Sequence record: QB031380.1
DNA from: a phage
Strand: one strand, 5' to 3'
Length of the DNA stretch: 44,130 nucleotides
Part shown: piece after piece, positions 3,441 through 38,552 of the stretch
Layout: each line of letters begins with the position of its first letter
Position numbering within the stretch: position 1 is the first letter of the stretch
Made by a program: the position numbers and the translations under genes
Notes under the pieces: model-generated
Told to the model about the DNA's origin: nothing
Seen by the model: only the letters and a program-made list of their open reading frames with translations
Databases searched by the model: none

Positions 3441-5728
3441 AAGACTTCGAACGCCTGTTTCTCGACACCGAGACATTTAGCGGGGTAGACCTGAAGAAAG
3501 TTGGTGCGTACGCCTACGCGGAACACCCAACTACCGAGATCATGATTTGCACATACGCCATCGACGAAGGCCGCGTGCAAACGTGGGATTGCACCGAGTC
3601 CCCCACAATGCCGCGTGAACTGCGCAAGGCGCTCCGCCGGGTATCCCGCAAGAAAGCAAAAATAGTGATGGCTAACGGCCTCCTGTTTGACCGCCTGGTT
3701 ATTCGCGAGAAGTGGGGCATTGACCTGCCAGTGTGCCAGATCGAAGATACCATGATTATGGCCTTTCGACACGCGTTGCCGGGTAGTCTCGATATGCAGT
3801 GCCAGGTGCTGGGCGTTGACGCAGATCACGCGAAGGATAAGGCTGGCAAGGCGCTGATTAAACGATTCTGTAAGCCTACCCCTAAGACCTACAAAATCCG
3901 CCGCTACACCCGCGAGACTCACCCTGAAGAATGGGCTAAATTCCTGCGCTATGCCGCGCTGGATATCATCGCGATGCGGGAAGTCTATTGGCGCATACCA
4001 GACTGGGGTAATACGCAGAAGGAAGACGAAATCCTGCTTATTGACCAGTTGATTAACGACCGCGGCTTCTATGTGGACGTTGACCTGGCGCGCGCTGCGA
4101 TCAAGGCGGTACAGGCGCATAAAGAAGAGTTGAAGGAAGAAGCCTGGGAGCGCTTCGGCGGTAAGCTGACGGGCAATGACTTCCTGCCAGCGCTGCGCGA
4201 CCTCGCTCCTGCGTTCACAATCCACAACGCGCAGAAATCCACGCTTAACGACCTGCTGGAAGATCCAGACTTCCCCGACGAAGGCAAAGTGCTTATCGAG
4301 ATGCGCCTCGGTGCGTCATCCACGGCGTCGACTAAGTACAATCCGCTCGTTAATGGCCTATCTGCCGATGGTCGCCGTCGTGGGTGTCTTCAGTATGGAG
4401 GGGCAAAGCGCACACTGCGTTGGGCCGGTAAAGGATTCCAGCCTCAAAACCTGGCACGCGGCGAGTATAGCGACGACCACGAAGGGAAGATTAAACGCCG
4501 TGAAGGCGAGAGCGATATATCCTTTTGGGTGCGGTCGCACATGCTCACCAACGGCATCAACTCCCTGTTACGCGGGACAGCGCACTGGGCATATGACATA
4601 TCGAAGCTAACGGCCTCGACCGTTCGCGGGTGCATTATTCCGGCGAAGGGCAAGAAGTTTGTCGTAGCGGACTACTCCAACGTGGAAGGGCGCGGCCTCG
4701 CCTGGATCGCTGGCGAGAAAACCGCGCTAATGGTATTTAGGGCCGGTCGCGATATTTATTGTGAGACTGCCGGTAAAATGTTCGGCCTCGACCCGGAATA
4801 CATTAAAGCCAACCGCAAAGACTTGCGCCAGATTGGTAAGGCGTGCGAATTGGGGTTGGGCTATGGAGGTGGCGTTGCCGCGTTCTTGCAGTTCGCTAAA
4901 AACCTGGGCCTCGACCTTTACGCGATGGCGGACGTCATGAAGGGCACATTCCCCGATCACATTTGGGCCGCAGCGAAACGTGGATATGAATACGCCCGCA
5001 TTAACGAAGCTAAGCGCCCGCCGAAGCCTGGCAAGAAAGACGAGCGCCCAACTTATATACTGCCGAAAAACGTATGGCTGACGTGTGATGCGATCAAACG
5101 TATGTGGCGTGAGTCGCACCCGAAGACGGTAGCATTTTGGGCCGAACTGGAAGACGCGGTGCTCTGCGCGATCCGCAATCCGGGCAAAGCGTACTGGGCT
5201 GGCGCGAACGTTCGCCCGGATGGTAAGAAAGCGCTCAAGATAGTCCGCACGAAGGCGAAGCATGACCCAACCTTCGACGAGGAGCGCGACGATCCGAACG
5301 CCGCGGGGTGGTGGTTGAAAATTGAGTTACCGTCGGGGCGCATCATGAGCTACCCCGGCATCGCGCTGTCTGTCACGACCGAGATCGACGAAGACACCGG
5401 CAAGAAGCGCACCAGCACCCGCATTAAATATCAGGGTGAGAATCCGACGACGCGCCAGTGGGGATTCCAGTACACCTACGGCGGCAAACTGACGGAAAAC
5501 ATCGTGCAGGCTCTGTGCCGCGATATCCTCGCATGGTCCATGCCAGGCGTTGAAGCTGCAGGGTATGAGATCGTACTGTCCGTACACGATGAACTGATAA
5601 CCGAAGTGCCGGATACCGACGACTACACAACCGAGGAGTTGTGCGCGCTGATGTGCGACCTGCCGGTTTGGGCTAAAGGCTTCCCGCTTGCCGCGGAAGG
5701 CGACATTATGTACAGGTACAGGAAATAA
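3437..5728 (+). CDS. DNA polymerase, family A, with N-terminal 3'-5' exonuclease domain
   Basis: 763 aa; N-terminal FLDTETF exonuclease motif; C-terminal VLSVHDELITEV (PolA motif C). Confidence 0.9.
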   Translation: MKDFERLFLDTETFSGVDLKKVGAYAYAEHPTTEIMICTYAIDEGRVQTWDCTESPTMPRELRKALRRVSRKKAKIVMANGLLFDRLVIREKWGIDLPVCQIEDTMIMAFRHALPGSLDMQCQVLGVDADHAKDKAGKALIKRFCKPTPKTYKIRRYTRETHPEEWAKFLRYAALDIIAMREVYWRIPDWGNTQKEDEILLIDQLINDRGFYVDVDLARAAIKAVQAHKEELKEEAWERFGGKLTGNDFLPALRDLAPAFTIHNAQKSTLNDLLEDPDFPDEGKVLIEMRLGASSTASTKYNPLVNGLSADGRRRGCLQYGGAKRTLRWAGKGFQPQNLARGEYSDDHEGKIKRREGESDISFWVRSHMLTNGINSLLRGTAHWAYDISKLTASTVRGCIIPAKGKKFVVADYSNVEGRGLAWIAGEKTALMVFRAGRDIYCETAGKMFGLDPEYIKANRKDLRQIGKACELGLGYGGGVAAFLQFAKNLGLDLYAMADVMKGTFPDHIWAAAKRGYEYARINEAKRPPKPGKKDERPTYILPKNVWLTCDAIKRMWRESHPKTVAFWAELEDAVLCAIRNPGKAYWAGANVRPDGKKALKIVRTKAKHDPTFDEERDDPNAAGWWLKIELPSGRIMSYPGIALSVTTEIDEDTGKKRTSTRIKYQGENPTTRQWGFQYTYGGKLTENIVQALCRDILAWSMPGVEAAGYEIVLSVHDELITEVPDTDDYTTEELCALMCDLPVWAKGFPLAAEGDIMYRYRK

Positions 5729-11238: not shown

Positions 11239-11814
11239 ATGTACGGCGAATATGAAATAACCGGTAAACAATTCCACCTGGCGGCGATGATTGCAAGCAT
11301 CGAGTTTGACCAGTGGCGCTTAAAGTCCGACGCGTGCAAGCAAAGCCGACTCGTCGGTGTGCTGGGCGAAATGTTTGCGGGCATGTACCTCGAAGGGCAG
11401 GCAGGCGGTCGAAGTTGTATCCCGCAAGGCTTACTCATGCGTACGGGCCTGTTTAGCGCTAATACAATCGACCGCGGCGATATTATCATGGTTGGCAAGC
11501 GCAAGGTAAAATCTGGCCCAGACTTCCGCGAGCATGTGATCGATGCCGTCTGGACCTATGAGGTTAAAGCCACCAGCGGCATCCGTCGCGGGCTGGTAGA
11601 GGCGCGTTGCGCTCGCGAATATCTATCGCGTAGAGTTTCCGGTGTTATCCTGGTGGGTGTATCGTTAGGGCCGCAAAGCGCGCACGGCGTGATTGAGGAT
11701 ATCGCAGAGCCATACGTGATCGTGAACGATTGGCCATTAGTGGAAGTGGAAGGAAAGGAATACTACGAAAGCCCGCTGGTTCGGCGCAAAATGGATTGGG
11801 AAAACTCAAACTAA
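11239..11814 (+). CDS. hypothetical protein
   Basis: 191 aa ORF with ATG start, ends at the bidirectional terminator. Confidence 0.5.
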   Translation: MYGEYEITGKQFHLAAMIASIEFDQWRLKSDACKQSRLVGVLGEMFAGMYLEGQAGGRSCIPQGLLMRTGLFSANTIDRGDIIMVGKRKVKSGPDFREHVIDAVWTYEVKATSGIRRGLVEARCAREYLSRRVSGVILVGVSLGPQSAHGVIEDIAEPYVIVNDWPLVEVEGKEYYESPLVRRKMDWENSN

Positions 11815-11843
11815 AAAAAGGGGCCGTGCGGCCCCTTCGCATC
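11815..11843. terminator. bidirectional terminator between convergent genes
   Basis: AAAAAAA-GGGGCCgtgcGGCCCC-ttcgcat; the A-run gives a T-run on the minus strand. Confidence 0.6.
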
Positions 11844-13518
11844 ACGCTTTAGTCAGTGCAGCCACGGCAGCTTTCAATTCCTCCAGTTCTTTCTGCATAT
11901 CTTCCACCTTACGTCCCATGAACACCATCGCACACGCCATATCGGTTAATATGACATTACCGTCTAGTGCCAGTGTATCGTCGTAGTAGTCGCCGTCATC
12001 CGCGTTGAATCCTTCCGTACCTACCAGATCCGGGTCTTTAAGCGCGCCGGGAATAATCTTCACGTATTGCGGGTCGATTTTAACCAGATCCTGCGCGATA
12101 AGGCCGTAGCGCTGGATTTCAGACCCCTTATACTTAAACATTGTTGGCAGCCACTGCATCACCCGGTCGTAGCTTTCCTTCCCTTCCGTGTACTTAATGT
12201 CATGCTTTAAGTCGCGGTCGGACGTAGGCGCTTTCTGGAACGTGTAAGCGCCAAATGTACCACTGACCTGAATATCACAGGCGCTTACATCAAATTCAAA
12301 GTTTGTCCAGTTTTCGCCATCCCCTCGGCAGCGCAATGCTGCGCGGGGCCAGTCCGCCGCGCCTTGTGCGATCAGCCCCCACGTCGCGCGGATAGGCCAG
12401 CCACCAGTTGATCTTGAATGCCAAGAAATTGCTGGCACCCATCCGCCGTCATTCGCACTGACTTCGGACAGCCATACGCCACTTTCCCCATAGGTATTTG
12501 GTATGTCCCATCCAGTTTGGAAGCCTTCTGCGATAAGACGCTTACCCTCTATCCTCGACGCTGTGCCCCATTTATCTTGGCCCGCGTCATACAACCACGT
12601 GCGGCCTGCCGACCCCAGGCCACGCACATTAAGGGTGTCGTCAGGCCCGATGCCTAAGTGGGTGCGCGCTGCCGCGGGGTCCGCAACGTCGCTAAGGTTG
12701 TTGGACTTAGCCAGAAATTTCGACGGGTCAATCTCATTCTTAAATTGTTCAGCCTCGTCGCGAAACCCTCGCGCGGCATCGCGTGCGGCTTGCGCGTCTG
12801 TCTTCGCGGTATTGACTTCGTCGCGAATAGCGCCAGTATCCGTCTTAATCTGGTAGGTCTGGTCCTTGATGCCCTGCGTATCAGTCTTAATCTGGTTGGT
12901 TTGCGTCTTGATCGCATCGGTGGCGTCGTGGATCGCCTGCGTATCCGCCTTAATCTGGTTGGTGGCGTCGCGAATCCCCGCCGTCTCAGTCTTGAAGCCT
13001 TCGGCCTCATTGCGAAATCCTTGCGCGGCTGCTTCAGATGCCGCGGCTTGTTGTTGCAGGTTGCGCATTTCAACTGGGTCAATTTGCTTCATCAATTGCG
13101 ACAGGTAGCCCCATGACATACCCTGCATAACTTGCCCGTTGGGCAGCGTAACGGTGATCTCTTCAGCGTCGCCGAAGATTGCACGCCAGTTGTTTTCATC
13201 CGCAATCATCAAGCGCAATGCTTTCTGAGCCTGGACTGTTACGCCCATCGTCGCCAGAGACATGGTATCGCGCGCAACGCCATCCCACGCAAGGCCGGTT
13301 GCCGTAGGGCCGTCGAACGGCAGCACCAGCGTAATCGCGGTGTCGCTTTCGACGGACGCGATAGCAACAGTGTAAGGCACTTGCCCCACCACCAGAGTTA
13401 AGAAGTCGCCAGCATTAAACGCGGTAAACGTCGTGCCTACCCCGACAACCGCCTTGCTGTTATTCGTTACGGATAGTGTACCCGCTGCCATAGCTGAATC
13501 CTCATAAATTGGTTGCAT
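11842..13518 (-). CDS. tail fibre protein with C-terminal intramolecular chaperone (peptidase S74) domain
   Basis: 558 aa; central xIKxDTQ-type repeats; C-terminal TSDRDLKHDI motif and YGLIAQDL segment typical of the auto-cleaving chaperone domain. Confidence 0.75.
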   Translation of the reverse strand: MQPIYEDSAMAAGTLSVTNNSKAVVGVGTTFTAFNAGDFLTLVVGQVPYTVAIASVESDTAITLVLPFDGPTATGLAWDGVARDTMSLATMGVTVQAQKALRLMIADENNWRAIFGDAEEITVTLPNGQVMQGMSWGYLSQLMKQIDPVEMRNLQQQAAASEAAAQGFRNEAEGFKTETAGIRDATNQIKADTQAIHDATDAIKTQTNQIKTDTQGIKDQTYQIKTDTGAIRDEVNTAKTDAQAARDAARGFRDEAEQFKNEIDPSKFLAKSNNLSDVADPAAARTHLGIGPDDTLNVRGLGSAGRTWLYDAGQDKWGTASRIEGKRLIAEGFQTGWDIPNTYGESGVWLSEVSANDGGWVPAISWHSRSTGGWPIRATWGLIAQGAADWPRAALRCRGDGENWTNFEFDVSACDIQVSGTFGAYTFQKAPTSDRDLKHDIKYTEGKESYDRVMQWLPTMFKYKGSEIQRYGLIAQDLVKIDPQYVKIIPGALKDPDLVGTEGFNADDGDYYDDTLALDGNVILTDMACAMVFMGRKVEDMQKELEELKAAVAALTKA

Positions 13519-13571
13519 TAATGGTTAAGCAGTGCAATACTAAAACTAAACCAAATATAGGGGATGATACC

Positions 13572-13793
13572 ATGAAAACATTAATTGTGATTTGTGCGGT
13601 TCTTCTGTCCGGCTGCGCGGTAGAGCGTAACAACGGCGATTGCATTACGGTAGCTTACGGAAGCTGCATGTTGCGCTACGTTGACGGGCAAAAAGTCCCT
13701 GCGGGGGATGTGGATATGCGATTCACTGGTCTGTCTGCCGATAGTGACGGCAATTTTTCCGGCACTGTTTCAGTTAAATCACGGGAGTGGTAA
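13572..13793 (+). CDS. lipoprotein (signal peptide with lipobox LSGC)
   Basis: MKTLIVICAVLLSGCAV N-terminus; internal ATG of track ORF 13509..13793. Confidence 0.6.
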   Translation: MKTLIVICAVLLSGCAVERNNGDCITVAYGSCMLRYVDGQKVPAGDVDMRFTGLSADSDGNFSGTVSVKSREW

Positions 13794-13795
13794 TT

Positions 13796-14761
13796 ATGGG
13801 CGCTGGAATACTTATCGACTACAACGACGGAAGGCCGGTGATGGAGATAACCGCCGGACTTCGCGCTCCGTCATACTGCACTACGTTTGATCAGCGCTGC
13901 CAGTCCGATAAGACGCTGACCATTAATACTCCGCTAACCCCAGGGTCTGATCTTGTCGTTGCGCTCACGCGTCCGGTAGAAGTGATTGAGGTCTTCGACC
14001 AAACGCTGGTGCTCCCGGACCCATTCTACGTTACGTCTGTACAACGTAACGGGGATAGCGGCATTATTCTACGAGGTGCGGACGCGTATAGCGCATACAG
14101 TGGTCTTCCGCAATGGGCTGGGATAATTATGGAAGTGCTGCCGGTTGGGTCGCGCAATGCTGGCTTACTGGTGGCGAACTCGACGGACTTCACCGCCATA
14201 ACTAACGTATCCAGGCTAATGACATGCCGATATGCGCAGCGCGTTCGCGTCAATGGGAGTATGGCATTGCCAGTCGGCGGTGTTCCGTTCGCGCGCTGGG
14301 ACGACGGCAACGTGTCGGTGGGATTCGATGGTGGTAGTATTATCGTCCGCAACGCGTCCTATGGTGGTATTGACGATGTGGCGGCTTCGGTGGATATGGA
14401 CCTAGTGATATTCAACAACACGCCGCCTTCACCGGGGACAGGCATTACCATGACTAACAACCAGGGACAGGTCACGTTCTCTACCGCTAACAAGCCGTTC
14501 GTCCTCAATTCCGTAATTAATATCGGCACTGGCGGTCAGAATATCGGCAACAGCCTCGTACAGCTTTCATATACTGGCGCGCTCATTGAGAACAACAGCG
14601 GATACAACCATGTGAGAATGAACGGGATACGCATGGCGGGAAACGTGGTTAGCGCGGCACGAAATCGCGTGGTCGGTAACTACTCACGGCAGCAATTCCA
14701 GATGCCTAACCGTAACGTGACCGTACCCACCCCGCTACTAGTCATCCCTAACATGTATTAA
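13796..14761 (+). CDS. hypothetical protein, co-transcribed with the lipoprotein
   Basis: ATG immediately after the lipoprotein stop; about 322 aa; no recognisable motif. Confidence 0.5.
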   Translation: MGAGILIDYNDGRPVMEITAGLRAPSYCTTFDQRCQSDKTLTINTPLTPGSDLVVALTRPVEVIEVFDQTLVLPDPFYVTSVQRNGDSGIILRGADAYSAYSGLPQWAGIIMEVLPVGSRNAGLLVANSTDFTAITNVSRLMTCRYAQRVRVNGSMALPVGGVPFARWDDGNVSVGFDGGSIIVRNASYGGIDDVAASVDMDLVIFNNTPPSPGTGITMTNNQGQVTFSTANKPFVLNSVINIGTGGQNIGNSLVQLSYTGALIENNSGYNHVRMNGIRMAGNVVSAARNRVVGNYSRQQFQMPNRNVTVPTPLLVIPNMY

Positions 14762-14790
14762 AAAGGGGCCGCATGGCCCCTTCGCATTTA
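14762..14790. terminator. bidirectional terminator
   Basis: AAAAA-GGGGCCgcatGGCCCC-ttcgcat, nearly identical to the terminator at 11815. Confidence 0.6.
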
Positions 14791-17700
14791 CCACGTACCT
14801 ACTTTCACCCTACCCCCGCCAGGTAATGGCACGTTAACGCCTGTTGAGTCGATCGTAACGGACCCGCCAGAGAATCCGAAATTACCAGTAGTCGCGAACA
14901 AGTTGCCCCTGACCGTTACGTTGTTGAACTCCGCCCCGCCATCCTTCGCGATACGCCAGCCGCTGCTACCAGGGTTCCAGTTATTGGATTGCAGCGTGTC
15001 CGTGATCTGTGCGAAGTTGATGGACGCATTCTTGATGCGTGCGGTGTCAATGTACACCTGTCCGCCGTCAACGATAAACGCGGACGAAAGCGACCCATTC
15101 GACGGGTGCATGATGTAGAACTGGTCCGCCTTGAACGCAATACGGGATTTAACCGCGCCGCCTTCCGCCACGACGGAAAGCTGCATACCGGCATCATAGT
15201 AAGTCCCGTTATACGTCACGCCCGCCTTAAGGCTATATGTGGCGCTACCGCCAGCATGGTTAAACGTGGACGTCATCTTCTGCTCAATAGCGGCGGACTG
15301 CTGCCCGAACTGTGCCGCCACCTGGGTCTTGTACTCCGCCAGCGCGCCAGCTACGTCTGCCGTTGCCGTTTGTACCTGCTGGATGGCAGCTTCCTGTTCT
15401 CCGAACTTAGCGGCAACAGTTTGCTGATACTGGGCGAAGGCTTGCTCGTGCGTGCTTTGCGCTGTCTGCAACGTGTGGATTGCCGCTTCCGCATCGTCAA
15501 GTCGCGTGCCGATCAACGTCTCCAGTTGAGCGACCGCCTTGTGGGCGTCCGCCGCCACGTTATACGCGACCGAGATTTCCGCATAAATACCCTTGTACTC
15601 GGCGCGGGCGTTGAACAATTGCTGCGCGTCGGTGAGCATCGCCTCGTAAATACCCTGCGGGATCGTGTCGATTGCTTCCTGGAAGTGTTTACCATCCTCG
15701 GAAGACAAGAACTCGTCATCAAGCCCCTTCATGTACTCGTCAACTTTGTCACTCACCTGCCCTTCAAACGGGGCCGACCAGTCCGACAGGTTGCCGATTT
15801 TATCAGCTACACGGGCGCGCAACTGCTGGTAAATTCCGAACTCCAGCGACGTTTGCGCGTACTCCGCGCCAGGATAGGGGACGTTTGTTAAGAATTTCCA
15901 TTCCGTTTCACCCGTCTTGCGCACTTCAAGCTCGGTGTAAGAGATATCCGTCGCGGCGTTGTTGTGGTTCCACTTCCACAAAATTTGATGCAGACCCGAA
16001 ATCGCGTTGGTGATGATTGGGGCGTTAAGCCCACCGAGGCGACCTTCCACCGGCGTGATCGCGGAAGACACCCACGGGGACGAGATTTCGCCCATGCCAA
16101 TTGCGCGGACGCGTGCCTGATAGTTACCGGAGAACACGTTAGGAATGTGCGCCCCATTCGACGCCGTGCGCGGGATATTCACCCAGTCGTTACCCCACTG
16201 GATTTCCATATTCTGCAAGCTGGTGCGTCGCCACTGGATTTCATACACCACGGCGTCCTTCACCGGCGGGAAAACAATATCCACGTTGGTGATTAGCTGG
16301 CCTTGCGATGAGATCTGCGACGGCGTGATTGTCACAGATTCCGGCCCCTTCATTACGCCGTCAGGCACTTGCGTGAAGATACCCGGATCAAGGCGAGCGC
16401 CATTATCAACGGCATCATATTTGCTATCGTTGTATTCAATCCCGCGCACCGAGAAAGTGCTGGTAGAGTCGTCATATTCCAGATCGGTGATGCGGAATTT
16501 CTGCAACTGGATATCATCGCCATCAACGCAAAACGGTTGGTCTGGAATCGGGTCGGCGTCCAGTGCGGTTTTTAGCGTGACCTTGTTGCCGTTGACGCTG
16601 GCGATCTCGCGAGTCTCCACATTTCCGCTATCGGTGCGCACCAGGAACTTATCACCAGGGCGGAATGTGATTTCGCTGTCTGTGTTCAGCACGATACGCG
16701 TGCCAGGGTCCGACAACAGGCGACCGCCACGAGTCTCGAATCCGCCAGAAATATTAGTATCCGCGATCGCGACTACGCTACCAGGAATAAAGAATAGACC
16801 CTCCATGCCCACCTTAAAACTAACTTGCTGGTCAAGCTGGTTGGATATTAGCGCCCAATGCCCGCGGCGTTGCGCTTCGGATTCGCGCGTACAGCCGATC
16901 GCCGTAATATCAAGACGGTTAATCTTATGGCGGCGCACCAGTTCGACGCGCTGGCCCGTTGCGATGGCGTCATCGTAGTGGTTTTTCGGGTTGCCGTAGG
17001 CTACCGCGAATGTGGAATAGCGAGTTTTCTGGCTGCCAGATGCGTAGTCGAATCGCCCATCAATAACAGATGCGTTGGTGATAGTGTGCGACACTGCTGC
17101 GACCGGTTGGTCACTGACGATATTCAACATCTGGTTGCCCCACCAGGTCATTCCGGCGAAGATGGCAGCCAAATCCTTAAGCACGGTCCAGGCATCCGTC
17201 TGTGACTGAATGTACATATCATTCTTAAAGCGGATTTCTCGACCACCGTTGCCGTCGCTGACCAACTGATCGCAGCGCTGCGCAATCTGGTAGAGCGCGT
17301 ATCGGTTTAGCATTTGCGGTTTGATACGCCGACCGAGGCCGAAGCGCTCAGTAATACAAATATCGTACCAGTGCCACGCAGGGTTATCCGTCCATGCGCG
17401 TTTAAACGTGCCGTCCCAGTCCCCGGAATAAGTATGATTAATCGGGTCGTAGTTGTTCGGTATTAGAACTTTGCGGCCTTTGCACTTGATGGACACGCGC
17501 GGGATGTTCTGGAACGCTTTGGCGTCGAACTCCACGAACAACAGCGCGGTTAGAGGGTATCGCAGGCGGGCGTCGATAATCTCGGTGATTGATTGTACCT
17601 GGATATCGTTAACCACTTTTGCCGATGTGGAGTCTGCCGTTATGCGGTGCACCTCCACGCGCCAGCCGGTGTTAACGTTCGGCGGTAGCTCGATGCGGTG

Positions 17701-18234
17701 ATCGCGCTCGTATAGCGACATTGTTTTACCAACGGCAGCGAAGGTAAACTCACGCGGGTCCGCGTTATCCGTATACACAACGATCTTATAGTCGATGCGC
17801 CCGCCCACCAGGTCGCCATTATCTTCGTTTGTGTACAGGGCCGGAATGCCGATGCGAATGCGCACGGCGTCCAAACTGGTGTCGTTAATCTGGCGCACCC
17901 ACGGCGTGCCGTTCTCCAGTTTTACGCCTACAGATTGCTCACTTTCCACCGCTGAAAATCCGTGGATCACATCCTGGTGCTGTGTTCCGGGGCGGAACTC
18001 CACACGCGCGCCGGGGAAGTTTTCAGACAGGTCTGCATTCTGGATCGGTGTTCCGTCCAGATATACGCGCCGCCGTAATTCGTTAGGGTCTGGAATACCT
18101 TCGAACTCACCTTCTCCCAGCGCGAGCAAGATGCGGATTTTAGCCAGCGAATGCAGGCTATCGGGCGTCTCCTGTGGGGTGTGCTGTTTGCCGCCGCCGC
18201 CTTTATGGCCCGTGACGTCGTAGATAATCGTCAT
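14788..18234 (-). CDS. J: central tail fibre / host specificity protein (lambda J-like)
   Basis: 1148 aa; N-terminus resembles lambda J; follows I/K/L genes in canonical order. Confidence 0.85.
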   Translation of the reverse strand: MTIIYDVTGHKGGGGKQHTPQETPDSLHSLAKIRILLALGEGEFEGIPDPNELRRRVYLDGTPIQNADLSENFPGARVEFRPGTQHQDVIHGFSAVESEQSVGVKLENGTPWVRQINDTSLDAVRIRIGIPALYTNEDNGDLVGGRIDYKIVVYTDNADPREFTFAAVGKTMSLYERDHRIELPPNVNTGWRVEVHRITADSTSAKVVNDIQVQSITEIIDARLRYPLTALLFVEFDAKAFQNIPRVSIKCKGRKVLIPNNYDPINHTYSGDWDGTFKRAWTDNPAWHWYDICITERFGLGRRIKPQMLNRYALYQIAQRCDQLVSDGNGGREIRFKNDMYIQSQTDAWTVLKDLAAIFAGMTWWGNQMLNIVSDQPVAAVSHTITNASVIDGRFDYASGSQKTRYSTFAVAYGNPKNHYDDAIATGQRVELVRRHKINRLDITAIGCTRESEAQRRGHWALISNQLDQQVSFKVGMEGLFFIPGSVVAIADTNISGGFETRGGRLLSDPGTRIVLNTDSEITFRPGDKFLVRTDSGNVETREIASVNGNKVTLKTALDADPIPDQPFCVDGDDIQLQKFRITDLEYDDSTSTFSVRGIEYNDSKYDAVDNGARLDPGIFTQVPDGVMKGPESVTITPSQISSQGQLITNVDIVFPPVKDAVVYEIQWRRTSLQNMEIQWGNDWVNIPRTASNGAHIPNVFSGNYQARVRAIGMGEISSPWVSSAITPVEGRLGGLNAPIITNAISGLHQILWKWNHNNAATDISYTELEVRKTGETEWKFLTNVPYPGAEYAQTSLEFGIYQQLRARVADKIGNLSDWSAPFEGQVSDKVDEYMKGLDDEFLSSEDGKHFQEAIDTIPQGIYEAMLTDAQQLFNARAEYKGIYAEISVAYNVAADAHKAVAQLETLIGTRLDDAEAAIHTLQTAQSTHEQAFAQYQQTVAAKFGEQEAAIQQVQTATADVAGALAEYKTQVAAQFGQQSAAIEQKMTSTFNHAGGSATYSLKAGVTYNGTYYDAGMQLSVVAEGGAVKSRIAFKADQFYIMHPSNGSLSSAFIVDGGQVYIDTARIKNASINFAQITDTLQSNNWNPGSSGWRIAKDGGAEFNNVTVRGNLFATTGNFGFSGGSVTIDSTGVNVPLPGGGRVKVGTW

Positions 18235-30414: not shown

Positions 30415-30445
30415 GAAAAAGGGGCCATTACGGCCCCTTAATTAT
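30415..30445. terminator. bidirectional terminator
   Basis: AAAAA-GGGGCCattacGGCCCC-TTAATTATTT; the Rz1 stop codon lies within the hairpin. Confidence 0.6.
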
Positions 30446-30658
30446 TTGCTGCAACTCCAACACCTGCGCCCTCAGCTTCGCGCCGCATTCCATATTTTTC
30501 ACGTCAATCATCAAATCTTCGTCGGGGTCCGCAGACGGGTTATCGAACTTGCACGGCGGTCGCAGCGCCGACTCCGTTAGCGGCATCAACGGCACGTTGC
30601 TTGATCCGCACGCGCTCAGCATCAAAACTACAATCAGGGCGGTTAGGGCGCGTAACAT
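30428..30658 (-). CDS. outer-membrane spanin lipoprotein (Rz1-like)
   Basis: Signal peptide plus lipobox LSACG, Pro-rich mature part; AAGAGG RBS inside the Rz-like gene; starts in another frame within it. Confidence 0.6.
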   Translation of the reverse strand: MLRALTALIVVLMLSACGSSNVPLMPLTESALRPPCKFDNPSADPDEDLMIDVKNMECGAKLRAQVLELQQIIKGP

Positions 30659-30899
30659 ATTTTACAACCTCTTTCGTGATAGTCCGGTATTCTACGTCGC
30701 GGGCTTGTTCGGCCTGCACGGAGCGCTCAACAACTTTAGTTTGCTGCCGTTGGGCTTTGGCTTGCGCTTCTTGCGCCGCCTCCGCCACTACGCCAGCGCG
30801 ATAGGAGTCACCTAGCCAGAATCCTACCGCCAGACCGATAACCAGTCCAATAGCCGCATACTTAATCACGCCATAACCCCCGGTTTTTAAGCTGTGCAA
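30540..30899 (-). CDS. inner-membrane spanin (Rz-like)
   Basis: N-terminal transmembrane segment, charged coiled-coil periplasmic part; overlaps the Rz1-like ORF; start may be GTG 30869. Confidence 0.5.
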   Translation of the reverse strand: MHSLKTGGYGVIKYAAIGLVIGLAVGFWLGDSYRAGVVAEAAQEAQAKAQRQQTKVVERSVQAEQARDVEYRTITKEVVKYVTRPNRPDCSFDAERVRIKQRAVDAANGVGAATAVQVR

Positions 30900-37541: not shown

Positions 37542-38033
37542 TTATGCAGCGTTACGACCGATTCGCTCGGCAACGTCCCACTGCTTACCATCAAACAACG
37601 CCTGTCTGCCGATTGCACGGCGTACCAGACCCTTTAACACTTCACCGCCTTGCTTGCGGAACTGCGGCAGAGTAGCACGGACCTTCGCCCAGTCGCCCAG
37701 TCGCACCGCGTCATCGAAATCATTCGCGACGTCATCCGGTACGATAGGACCAGGACCGGCGTTGATTACCAGGTCCACCAGCGCGTCGAATTGCGCCTGG
37801 TTAATGCTTGGATGTGCGTATTTGTTCACCCAGTCCTCGGCATACGCCACGTCGCGCTTTAGCAGTTCCAGCGCTTCCGCGCGGGTAATGCTTCGAGGCG
37901 GATTAGTGCCCGTATGACCATAGCCCCAGGTGTACAGGCCGCGGGCCTGCTCTTTCTTGGTTGCGAAATACGGCACCGGGCTGAAAGCCTCCCATGCTGC
38001 CGTAAATCTTAGACCGTTGTCACTGAATCGCAT
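37542..38033 (-). CDS. endolysin (phage lysozyme, GH24-like)
   Basis: E...Y.W.YGHTG and QAQFDALVDLVINAG pattern typical of phage lysozymes; preceded by two membrane-protein genes. Confidence 0.8.
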   Translation of the reverse strand: MRFSDNGLRFTAAWEAFSPVPYFATKKEQARGLYTWGYGHTGTNPPRSITRAEALELLKRDVAYAEDWVNKYAHPSINQAQFDALVDLVINAGPGPIVPDDVANDFDDAVRLGDWAKVRATLPQFRKQGGEVLKGLVRRAIGRQALFDGKQWDVAERIGRNAA

Positions 38034-38265
38034 GTTTTACCCCATTCAAAACAGCATTACGCAGTGTGCGCAATGCAAACAGCCATATTAACGCGGTCCA
38101 GGTGGTATCAGATACGTCTCCTGTTTGCAACAGTCCGATAATACAGACCATTGCCGTTAACAGATACAGCACCCGGCCGAAAATGCCATCCCGGACGGAC
38201 GGCGCATACACGTTAAACAGGGACGAAGCCCCGATGATAACAAACAACAGGACGGAGATAATCAT
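38020..38265 (-). CDS. holin-like membrane protein
   Basis: 81 aa with two hydrophobic helices, directly upstream of the endolysin. Confidence 0.6.
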   Translation of the reverse strand: MIISVLLFVIIGASSLFNVYAPSVRDGIFGRVLYLLTAMVCIIGLLQTGDVSDTTWTALIWLFALRTLRNAVLNGVKHAIQ

Positions 38266-38552
38266 TTTGCACCCCCCGGAAGTCGGAACGACGCAATAGT
38301 CTCCCTGATCCGGTCGGCGATTGGCATCCAGAAGATCGCAGTTACGAAGCCCAAACCGGCGACAGTGCGCTCACCCGACAAACCAGCCCACTCGGCAATA
38401 GCCGGTGCGCCAAATATGGCACACAGGAAGCCAACTACAACATACAAAACGAAGTTTAGCGGCCCCTTCGTAGCCTCACTATGAATGCGTGCGCCTACGA
38501 AGCCACCCGCCAGACATGCCAGGGCGAATAGCCACTCGTTTAGCTTATCCAT
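38262..38552 (-). CDS. holin/antiholin-like membrane protein
   Basis: 96 aa with several hydrophobic helices, in the lysis cassette. Confidence 0.5.
   Translation of the reverse strand: MDKLNEWLFALACLAGGFVGARIHSEATKGPLNFVLYVVVGFLCAIFGAPAIAEWAGLSGERTVAGLGFVTAIFWMPIADRIRETIASFRLPGGAK

Follow-up and report, generated by a model that had tools for sequence, protein, structure and literature searches.

In the phage group considered here, the J protein only carries a receptor-binding protein (RBP) that is encoded separately, and the literature places the RBP locus, with its cognate exclusion protein, downstream of gpJ, a site that the BASEL papers call the "bona fide RBP locus". A description of this locus type appeared in 2021 with the BASEL collection, and the structures of the Oekolampad RBP ortholog and of the homolog Rtp45 were solved in 2025. 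In Oekolampad (Bas18, Dhillonvirus), the RBP (RBPOeko, bas18_0025; PDB 9RPT, 9RPW, and 9RQI) was visualized by cryo-EM at 2.8 Å on the extracellular face of the LptDE lipopolysaccharide translocon; lptD point mutants abolished its binding to LptDE, and the lptD mutations that block binding in vitro also give phage resistance (PMC12685063). The neighboring gene, bas18_0026, was named the superinfection-exclusion lipoprotein of Oekolampad (SEOeko) by the same authors, in whose hands its expression failed (PMC12685063). Rtp45 was solved on the periplasmic side of LptDE (9RPS, Rtp45-LptDEM), where it displaces loop EL4 and RBP binding is blocked (PMC12685063). In the literature covered, which did not extend to the original description of Rtp, no plating data for Rtp45 were found outside that paper. 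T5 is alike in logic, with a separately encoded RBP (pb5, encoded by oad) at the tip of the central fiber and an adjacent small lipoprotein, Llp, which inactivates the receptor from the periplasmic side, as the lipoprotein described below may also do. T5 differs in that the receptor is FhuA and that Llp acts by long-range allostery, whereas Rtp45 physically displaces a loop. T5 llp is transcribed separately from oad. FhuA is also the target of the Cor lipoproteins of T1, phi80, N15, and FhuA-type Dhillonviruses such as SSL-2009a (gp27).

The stretch of DNA analyzed here (the window; QB031380.1, 44,130 nt) comes from a Dhillonvirus-like E. coli siphophage. A two-gene cassette on its plus strand is flanked by the lateral tail fiber and J genes, both on the minus strand (Table 1). 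With a probability of roughly 0.88, we read this cassette as a Dhillonvirus receptor-specificity module of the LptD type. On this reading, it is a coliphage receptor module that had been described before and an ordinary finding; since the locus was already known, it has little weight as a discovery. Both ORFs are real genes, with Pfam E values of 2.9e-21 and 1.6e-118 and strong purifying selection (dN/dS of 0.02 for the lipoprotein and 0.06–0.08 for the RBP, against two relatives). A sequence-only reading of the same DNA had recognized both genes, but its start, length, and convergence assignments did not hold, and its promoter-like element is at best a weak candidate. It opened the cassette at about 13508; the start codon is likely ATG 13572, the one used in the JL1 and Oekolampad annotations, and TTG 13509 merely opens the longest ORF. 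The second protein counts 321 aa instead of 322. The fiber and J genes, which it described as convergent, lie on the same strand and are therefore not convergent with each other: the fiber gene and the cassette diverge, and the cassette and J converge.

Table 1. Coordinates of the receptor module and neighboring features in the window
Feature	Position	Strand	Basis
Lateral tail fiber, 549 aa from ATG 13491, with C-terminal Peptidase_S74 chaperone domain	11842..13491	-	PHROG 1980, PF13884
Weak candidate promoter TTGCAT-17-TGcAATACT (extended -10)	13513..13541	+	Read by hand; below consensus-scan threshold
Sigma-70-like site ATCACA-16-TATCAT preceded by TG, facing the fiber gene	13564..13591	-	Consensus match only
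Putative superinfection-exclusion lipoprotein gene, 73 aa	13572..13793	+	PF24052, PHROG 4281, similarity to Oekolampad and Rtp45
Signal peptide and LSGC lipobox, residues 1-15	13572..13616	+	Read from sequence
Exchangeable receptor-specificity module: mature lipoprotein, RBP, hairpin, J tip	13619..14978		Alignment to SSL-2009a
RBS GGGAG for the RBP gene, within the lipoprotein gene at its 3' end	13783..13787	+	Read from sequence
RBP gene, 321 aa, DUF6453 family, predicted LptD type	13796..14761	+	PDB, Pfam, Oekolampad, and JL1 matches
G+C-rich hairpin between the stop codons of the convergent RBP and J genes	14762..14787 (stem 14765-14770 / 14775-14780)		Folding
J-like central tail fiber / tail tip protein, 1148 aa, RBP carrier	14788..18234	-	Similarity to Oekolampad and JL1
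J C-terminal 63 residues (aa 1086-1148)	14788..14978	-	Changes together with RBP type

The lipoprotein stop codon (TAA, 13791–13793) is followed by a 2-nt spacer and then by the RBP start codon. The genes are annotated with identical lengths (222 and 966 bp) and spacing in JL1 and Oekolampad, and the Oekolampad pair also has the same order and orientation between lateral fiber and J. The stop codons of RBP and J are 26 nt apart. The order lipoprotein to RBP, convergent on J, is common to JL1, Oekolampad, and AugustePiccard, and all three have the identical layout. The pairs of Rtp (rtp44/rtp45) and AugustePiccard (Bas01; bas01_0028/bas01_0029) share the Pfam families DUF6453 and PF24052 with the cassette, likewise begin with the lipoprotein and converge on J, and have the conserved cysteine pair; their receptor, LptD, is the same as predicted here. 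They differ in belonging to another virus family (Drexlerviridae), in sequence (~33% identity for the RBP and ~36% for the lipoprotein), and in their gene junction, an ATGA overlap instead of the 2-nt gap. Neither cassette protein had a match in NCBIfam or PADLOC, and Tandem Repeats Finder found no repeats over 11800–15000.

The 321-aa protein matched chain C of 9RPT, 9RPW, and 9RQI over residues 1–321 (phmmer against PDB, E = 3.6e-187). It is identical to RBPOeko at 280 of 321 positions (87%, full length) and to JL1 gp40 at 311 of 321, and it belongs to DUF6453 (PF20051; 395.8 bits against a cutoff of 25, residues 4–297), as do the Rtp44 ortholog and SPN3UB gp38. Gln299, an LptD contact named in the Oekolampad paper, is conserved. 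By homology, the protein is a receptor-binding protein, the functional counterpart of T5 pb5 and Rtp44, and this allele presumably uses LptD. The sequence-only reading had seen no known counterpart for it; RBPOeko, solved on LptDE, is one. That reading also made it a partner in exclusion, a role that it considered incompatible with a place in the virion; as an RBP, the protein would be a virion component, and by that standard the idea of an exclusion cassette of two proteins would fall for this gene.

The 41 substitutions relative to RBPOeko are clustered in a few stretches (residues 30–53, 83–99, 136–161, 224–247, and 284–309), as might be expected if the module were of the same kind but its allele had a different receptor, or accepted LptD only in certain variants. 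AugustePiccard, which has a DUF6453 RBP too, requires NupG besides LptD, via a GpJ domain. We nevertheless consider such a receptor shift unlikely: DUF6453 alleles down to ~33% identity (Bas01 and Bas02) remain linked to LptD, the literature has locus type matching receptor "without exception", LptD use is predicted for Bas83–85, whose RBPs are ~82–88% identical (DNA or protein level), and the accompanying lipoprotein is nearly invariant.

Tight gene spacing and an orientation antisense to the tail operon, together with the labels given to the large protein (PHROG 1265 "moron ... membrane protein" and RefSeq "membrane protein"), could also suggest a superinfection-exclusion (moron) cassette of two proteins, the lipoprotein being assisted by a 321-aa protein that has no structural role. 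This is very improbable, given that an 87% identical protein was solved on the extracellular face of LptDE, that lptD mutations blocking the binding of this ortholog in vitro confer phage resistance, and that SPN3UB has its homolog within the tail operon, immediately following J and without a lipoprotein. Moreover, no signal peptide, transmembrane segment, or hydrophobic segment was found in the 321-aa protein (maximum KD19, 1.23), and we rejected the label "membrane protein" for lack of a hydrophobic segment.

Among the best 80 DUF6453 loci in IMG/VR, 76 had no PF24052 lipoprotein within 5 kb, so the pairing of lipoprotein and DUF6453 protein is not universal in the family. These 76 loci are SPN3UB-like and mostly seem to be prophages; the four with a nearby lipoprotein are all Dhillonvirus-like.

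J shares 96.4% identity with bas18_0024 of Oekolampad, annotated "J-like tail tip protein", and 99% with JL1 gp41. The sequence-only reading had counted J and the tail fiber as receptor-binding genes, which does not agree with the carrier role of J in this phage group. Residues 1–1000 of J are 95–100% identical to those of SSL-2009a despite a divergent tip: the last 60 aa show 85% identity to Oekolampad, 49% to AugustePiccard, 45% to SPN3UB, and 25% to SSL-2009a. AugustePiccard and SPN3UB, with J tips of similar type, both encode DUF6453 proteins, and in three phage lineages J tip and DUF6453 vary together. The C-terminal tip of J is likely the docking site for the RBP. At the DNA level, the flanks 13000–13618 and 14979–16500 align with the FhuA/Cor-type phage SSL-2009a at 93%; between them there is no alignment, and homology on the J side ends at 14979. 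The intervening segment was swapped as a block relative to SSL-2009a. The lateral tail fiber (PHROG 1980, 2.5e-123; Pfam PF13884, 3.9e-9) is merely 49–52% identical to the Oekolampad and JL1 fibers. It is a separate, glycan-directed fiber (role according to PMC11990801), and as it is 49% identical to that of Oekolampad, its primary (glycan) specificity differs.

The small plus-strand lipoprotein with an LSGC lipobox was confirmed as reported by the sequence-only reading. Its N-terminus, MKTLIVICAVLLSGC, carries the lipobox, the residue at +2 is Ala (i.e., non-Asp), and the hydrophobic core of the signal peptide has a KD12 of 2.87. The assignment to an exclusion type of lipoprotein also agrees with the matches obtained: PF24052 (75.7 bits against a cutoff of 27), PHROG 4281 (6e-33), SEOeko (71 of 73 residues identical, 97%), and Rtp45 (9RPS_D, E = 1.6e-8). 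Cys24 and Cys32 of the mature protein (Cys-x7-Cys) align with the Rtp45 disulfide Cys30–Cys38, and the motif VPAGxVDxR(Y/F)xG is common to both proteins. The lipoprotein is near-invariant (97% identity to Oekolampad, against 87% for the RBP; dN/dS ~0.02). Since SEOeko could not be expressed by its authors, we infer exclusion by the Dhillonvirus subtype from the ~36% identity to Rtp45. No Llp chain was found among the PDB sequence matches of the lipoprotein at E values up to 10, and the likeness to Llp is functional only.

The Cor lipoproteins occupy the same genomic slot and strand, and the promoter region and signal peptide of the cassette are essentially identical to those of the Cor type up to the lipobox Cys. 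In the alignment with SSL-2009a Cor, divergence begins directly after this Cys. The PHROG 1119 "Cor" match (5.7e-4) covers residues 1–30 (the signal peptide) only, because the mature protein is unrelated to Cor, and we did not assign the mature lipoprotein to the Cor group. The RBP genes that accompany cor lie on the J strand, unlike that of the cassette.

Small outer-membrane lipoproteins of phages are often o-spanins. The exclusion role being argued from similarity, the lipoprotein might be such a lysis protein or another outer-membrane effector, but this is extremely improbable, as the window has its own i-spanin/o-spanin pair (minus strand, 30431–30869) besides a holin and an endolysin encoded separately (37545–38552), and the lipoprotein has its matches in the Rtp45 family instead of among spanins and lies within the receptor module, its mature part swapped together with RBP type. 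The o-spanin identity was rejected, the lipoprotein being unpaired with an i-spanin and the spanin pair being located elsewhere in the window. In Oekolampad, the spanins are annotated separately.

Both genes match the Oekolampad pair, and LptDE binding is established for the 87% identical RBP ortholog and for the ~36% identical lipoprotein homolog Rtp45. By analogy, the RBP of the present phage would be made in the cytoplasm and dock by non-covalent contacts on the J-like central fiber, at its C-terminal tip. The lateral fiber would deal first with surface glycans, after which the RBP would enter the lumen of the open-state LptDE translocon in the outer membrane, leading to irreversible adsorption. 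After export and lipidation at Cys15, the 73-aa protein would be targeted to the outer membrane and reside in its inner leaflet, where it may bind the periplasmic rim of LptDE and push a hairpin up the lumen. This hairpin would displace the extracellular loop EL4, and the RBP of a second phage, or of progeny meeting debris, would therefore be unable to bind. We advance, tentatively and as a joint proposal that is more doubtful than probable, that the lipoprotein is made from the RBP message, just before the RBP, with late silencing of LptD instead of early exclusion as its main job, and that the near-invariant lipoprotein could cross-exclude every LptD-type phage, whatever its RBP allele. Late silencing, if it occurs, would spare progeny from loss on debris. 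A further question is if the substitution clusters of the RBP follow differences between hosts in the LptD loops.

The terminal receptor is thus predictable as LptD from sequence. LptD is an essential protein, which makes the prediction relevant to phage steering and therapy. Database labels for the RBP trail the literature (Pfam "DUF6453", PHROG 1265 "moron ... membrane protein", RefSeq "membrane protein"), and such outdated labels will mislead annotation-based screens.

We infer both the co-transcription and the timing of the lipoprotein and RBP genes. The sequence-only reading had proposed a terminator downstream of the cassette, and a hairpin is indeed present in the 26 nt that separate the RBP and J stop codons. 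It was missed by the automatic scan, perhaps because extension of the stem consumes the T-run, and was therefore folded separately (minus strand, -20.1 kcal/mol; plus strand, -16.7 kcal/mol; z about -2.7). Its clean U-run (UUUUU) is on the J (minus) side, and the plus strand continues with UUCGCAUUU; the hairpin resembles an intrinsic terminator that would serve J and, more weakly, the cassette. A promoter-like element had likewise been placed upstream of the cassette. In a consensus scan of 11500–15500, no sigma-70-like site on the plus strand reached the threshold. The weak candidate there was read by hand, and JL1, Oekolampad, and SSL-2009a share it. The scan returned a single hit, where chance alone would give 3.3; this site lies on the minus strand, faces the fiber gene, and extends over the initial codons of the lipoprotein gene.

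The sequenced DNA (QB031380.1) is, judged by DNA comparison, that of a Dhillonvirus-like E. coli siphophage; positions 20000-44130 were 91-94% identical to several Dhillonvirus genomes, and 13400-14900 was 93% identical to phage JL1. Two plus-strand genes, encoding a small lipoprotein and a 321-aa protein, are flanked by two minus-strand tail genes, for a lateral tail fibre and for J, the 1148-aa J-like tail tip protein. Because both tail genes are on the minus strand, the cassette is divergent from the fibre gene and convergent on J. The sequence-only reading had described the tail fibre and J genes themselves as convergent and had placed the cassette start at 13508, which is corrected to the ATG at 13572. 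Both cassette ORFs are real genes as judged by dN/dS against Oekolampad (Bas18, genus Dhillonvirus) and JL1 (lipoprotein, 0.018-0.026; partner, 0.057-0.080; synonymous differences, 0.21-0.57).

Features of the lipoprotein-RBP cassette and its flanks
Feature	Coordinates	Strand	Remarks
Lateral tail fibre gene	11842-13491	-	start taken as annotated in relatives
Candidate promoter	13513-13541	+	TTGCAT, 17 nt, TGcAATACT; by eye; conserved in relatives; weak evidence
Sigma-70-like site	13591..13564	-	sole one in region, towards lateral fibre gene; inside conserved 13492-13618
Lipoprotein gene	13572-13793	+	73 aa; ATG start; N-terminus MKTLIVICAVLLSGC, LSGC lipobox, Ala at +2
Ribosome-binding site of predicted RBP gene	13783-13787	+	GGGAG; read in sequence
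Predicted receptor-binding protein (RBP) gene	13796-14761	+	321 aa; ATG start; 2-nt spacer after lipoprotein gene
Hairpin	stem 14765-14770 / 14775-14780	both	26-nt gap between RBP stop and J stop; by folding
J gene	14788-18234	-	tail gene on far side of cassette

The larger protein had been thought to lack a known counterpart in the T5 and phi80/N15 systems, but 280 of its 321 residues are identical to the receptor-binding protein of Oekolampad (RBPOeko). A sequence search of the PDB matched residues 1-321 to chain C of 9RPT/9RPW/9RQI (E 3.6e-187), a match that we consider decisive; these entries are RBPOeko on LptDE, the outer-membrane lipopolysaccharide translocon (PMC12685063). The 'Tail fiber protein' chain deposited for RBPOeko (PMC12685063) has the sequence of Oekolampad bas18_0025, since its differences from our protein in the PDB alignment equal those computed against bas18_0025. 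RBPOeko goes deep into the lumen of open-state LptDE, its Gln299 contacts LptD Ser350, and lptD point mutants lose RBPOeko binding (PMC12685063). Gln299 is kept in the protein described here. By homology, we assign the 321-aa protein as a receptor-binding protein (RBP); as such it would therefore be a virion component, and this allele, too, probably uses LptD. The protein also matched Pfam DUF6453 (1.6e-118) and PHROG 1265, which is labeled 'membrane protein'. That label was rejected for this protein, which has no hydrophobic segment (maximum Kyte-Doolittle value over 19 residues, 1.23). The solved family is still DUF6453 in Pfam and 'membrane protein' in both PHROG 1265 (category moron) and RefSeq, and Oekolampad's own GenBank record annotates its RBP as 'hypothetical protein'.

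A plus-strand lipoprotein with a signal peptide and LSGC lipobox was present as first described, and its proposed role in receptor-blocking exclusion was supported by homology. It matched Pfam PF24052 'Phage_lipoprotein' (2.9e-21, 75.7 bits, cutoff 27) and, in the PDB, 9RPS chain D (E 1.6e-8), which is Rtp45 of phage Rtp, in a structure where it lies on the periplasmic face of LptDE (PMC12685063). It is identical at 71/73 positions to Oekolampad bas18_0026, named SEOeko by its authors, who could not express it (PMC12685063). Cys24 and Cys32 align with the Cys30-Cys38 disulfide of Rtp45, and the motif VPAGxVDxR(Y/F)xG is common to this lipoprotein and to Rtp45-type and phiEco32-type members. 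At the periplasmic rim of LptDE, Rtp45 occupies a place between LptE and LptM, and its hairpin extends up the lumen and moves loop EL4 as much as 20 Å, a displacement incompatible with RBP binding (PMC12685063). The lipoprotein subtype found here would thus be expected to exclude phage. Two other assignments were rejected: the PHROG 'Cor' match is limited to the signal peptide, and an o-spanin role is taken by a separate spanin pair (30431-30869, minus strand), with holin and endolysin at 37545-38552. A PDB sequence search with the lipoprotein (E up to 10) returned no T5 Llp chain. The sequence-only reading was largely right in observation, apart from start coordinate, strand description, and promoter; its interpretation is probably right for the lipoprotein and wrong for the partner.

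The two genes are probably co-transcribed. Of the promoter-like element claimed upstream, only a by-eye candidate stands; a consensus scan of the region gave no plus-strand sigma-70-like site at threshold. For the hairpin between the RBP and J genes, the folding energy is -20.1 kcal/mol when read on the J strand, where UUUUU comes next, and -16.7 kcal/mol on that of the cassette, where UUCGCAUUU comes next. Near-identical hairpins, AAGGGGCC-nnnn-GGCCCCTT, occur at 11817-11838 and 14762-14783, the two sites where plus- and minus-strand genes converge (the ends of the lateral fibre gene and of J). Oekolampad repeats 14760-14783 exactly (24 nt), immediately after its lateral fibre gene (2573-2596 of the Oekolampad locus).

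Comparison with SSL-2009a, a Dhillonvirus of the FhuA/Cor type, gave 93% DNA homology as far as 13618, just beyond the lipobox Cys codon, and again from 14979 (J residue 1085). The exchangeable unit therefore comprises the mature lipoprotein, RBP, hairpin, and last 63 J residues, and the divergence point directly after the Cys codon looks like a recombination boundary of a receptor module. The stretch 13492-13618 (intergenic plus signal-peptide codons) is almost identical between LptD-type phages and SSL-2009a. The last 60 J residues share just 25% identity with SSL-2009a J but 49% and 45% with J of AugustePiccard (Bas01) and SPN3UB, which both encode DUF6453 proteins and whose J proteins are far more distant elsewhere. 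Since J-tip identity goes with DUF6453 phages and not with SSL-2009a, these alignments support docking of RBP on the J tip. Conservation within the RBP family is highest at residues 1-26, the N-terminus, which is a candidate docking end. Citrobacter phage HCF1 (29341-29442) matches only the first 34 RBP residues (76% identity), the rest of its RBP being different, which points to a common adaptor at the N-terminus, perhaps docking on J. A second hotspot of host range, independent of this module, is the lateral tail fibre, which is just 49-52% identical to the Oekolampad and JL1 fibres, with flanking genes at >93%, and ends in a C-terminal Peptidase_S74 intramolecular chaperone domain.

As a system, the cassette has been described before; only the isolate is new. 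The Oekolampad locus has the same order (lateral fibre, minus; bas18_0026, 222 bp, plus; bas18_0025, 966 bp, plus; J-like protein, minus), and the two J proteins are 96.4% identical. Likewise, in AugustePiccard (Rtp-like, Drexlerviridae), the small gene bas01_0029 precedes the RBP gene bas01_0028 and overlaps it; both are convergent on J, and their products fall into the two Pfam families named above. This arrangement is what the BASEL papers and a 2026 preprint call the variable 'bona fide RBP locus' downstream of gpJ; a cognate exclusion protein goes with it, and the terminal receptor is reported to be predictable from its allele.

Podoviruses of the Gordonclarkvirinae/Kuravirus group, with genomes of 75-79 kb, also carry lipoproteins that match PF24052 strongly (phiEco32, AnnaHegner_Bas87, Paul, EP335, and NC-B). 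In phiEco32 the gene is gp106 (3968-4249 of the phiEco32 locus; 2.4e-36), within a block of small hypothetical genes. The DUF6453 matches listed included no genomes of 75-79 kb, and no paper searched linked Kuravirus to LptD; the lipoprotein matches hint that these podoviruses may exploit LptDE themselves or else close it to competing phages. Among the best 80 IMG/VR viral-contig relatives of RBP, 76 were SPN3UB-like (~52% identical), and 0/76 of these loci had a PF24052 lipoprotein within 5 kb. Salmonella phage SPN3UB itself, which has an integrase, carries its DUF6453 gene (4501-5460) after J on the same strand. Klebsiella T1-like phages have a PF24052-like lipoprotein ~10.5 kb from the DUF6453 gene rather than adjoining it (in KA1-2, PQ571295, RBP at 4491-5444 and lipoprotein at 15046-15270), often unannotated or beneath other features.
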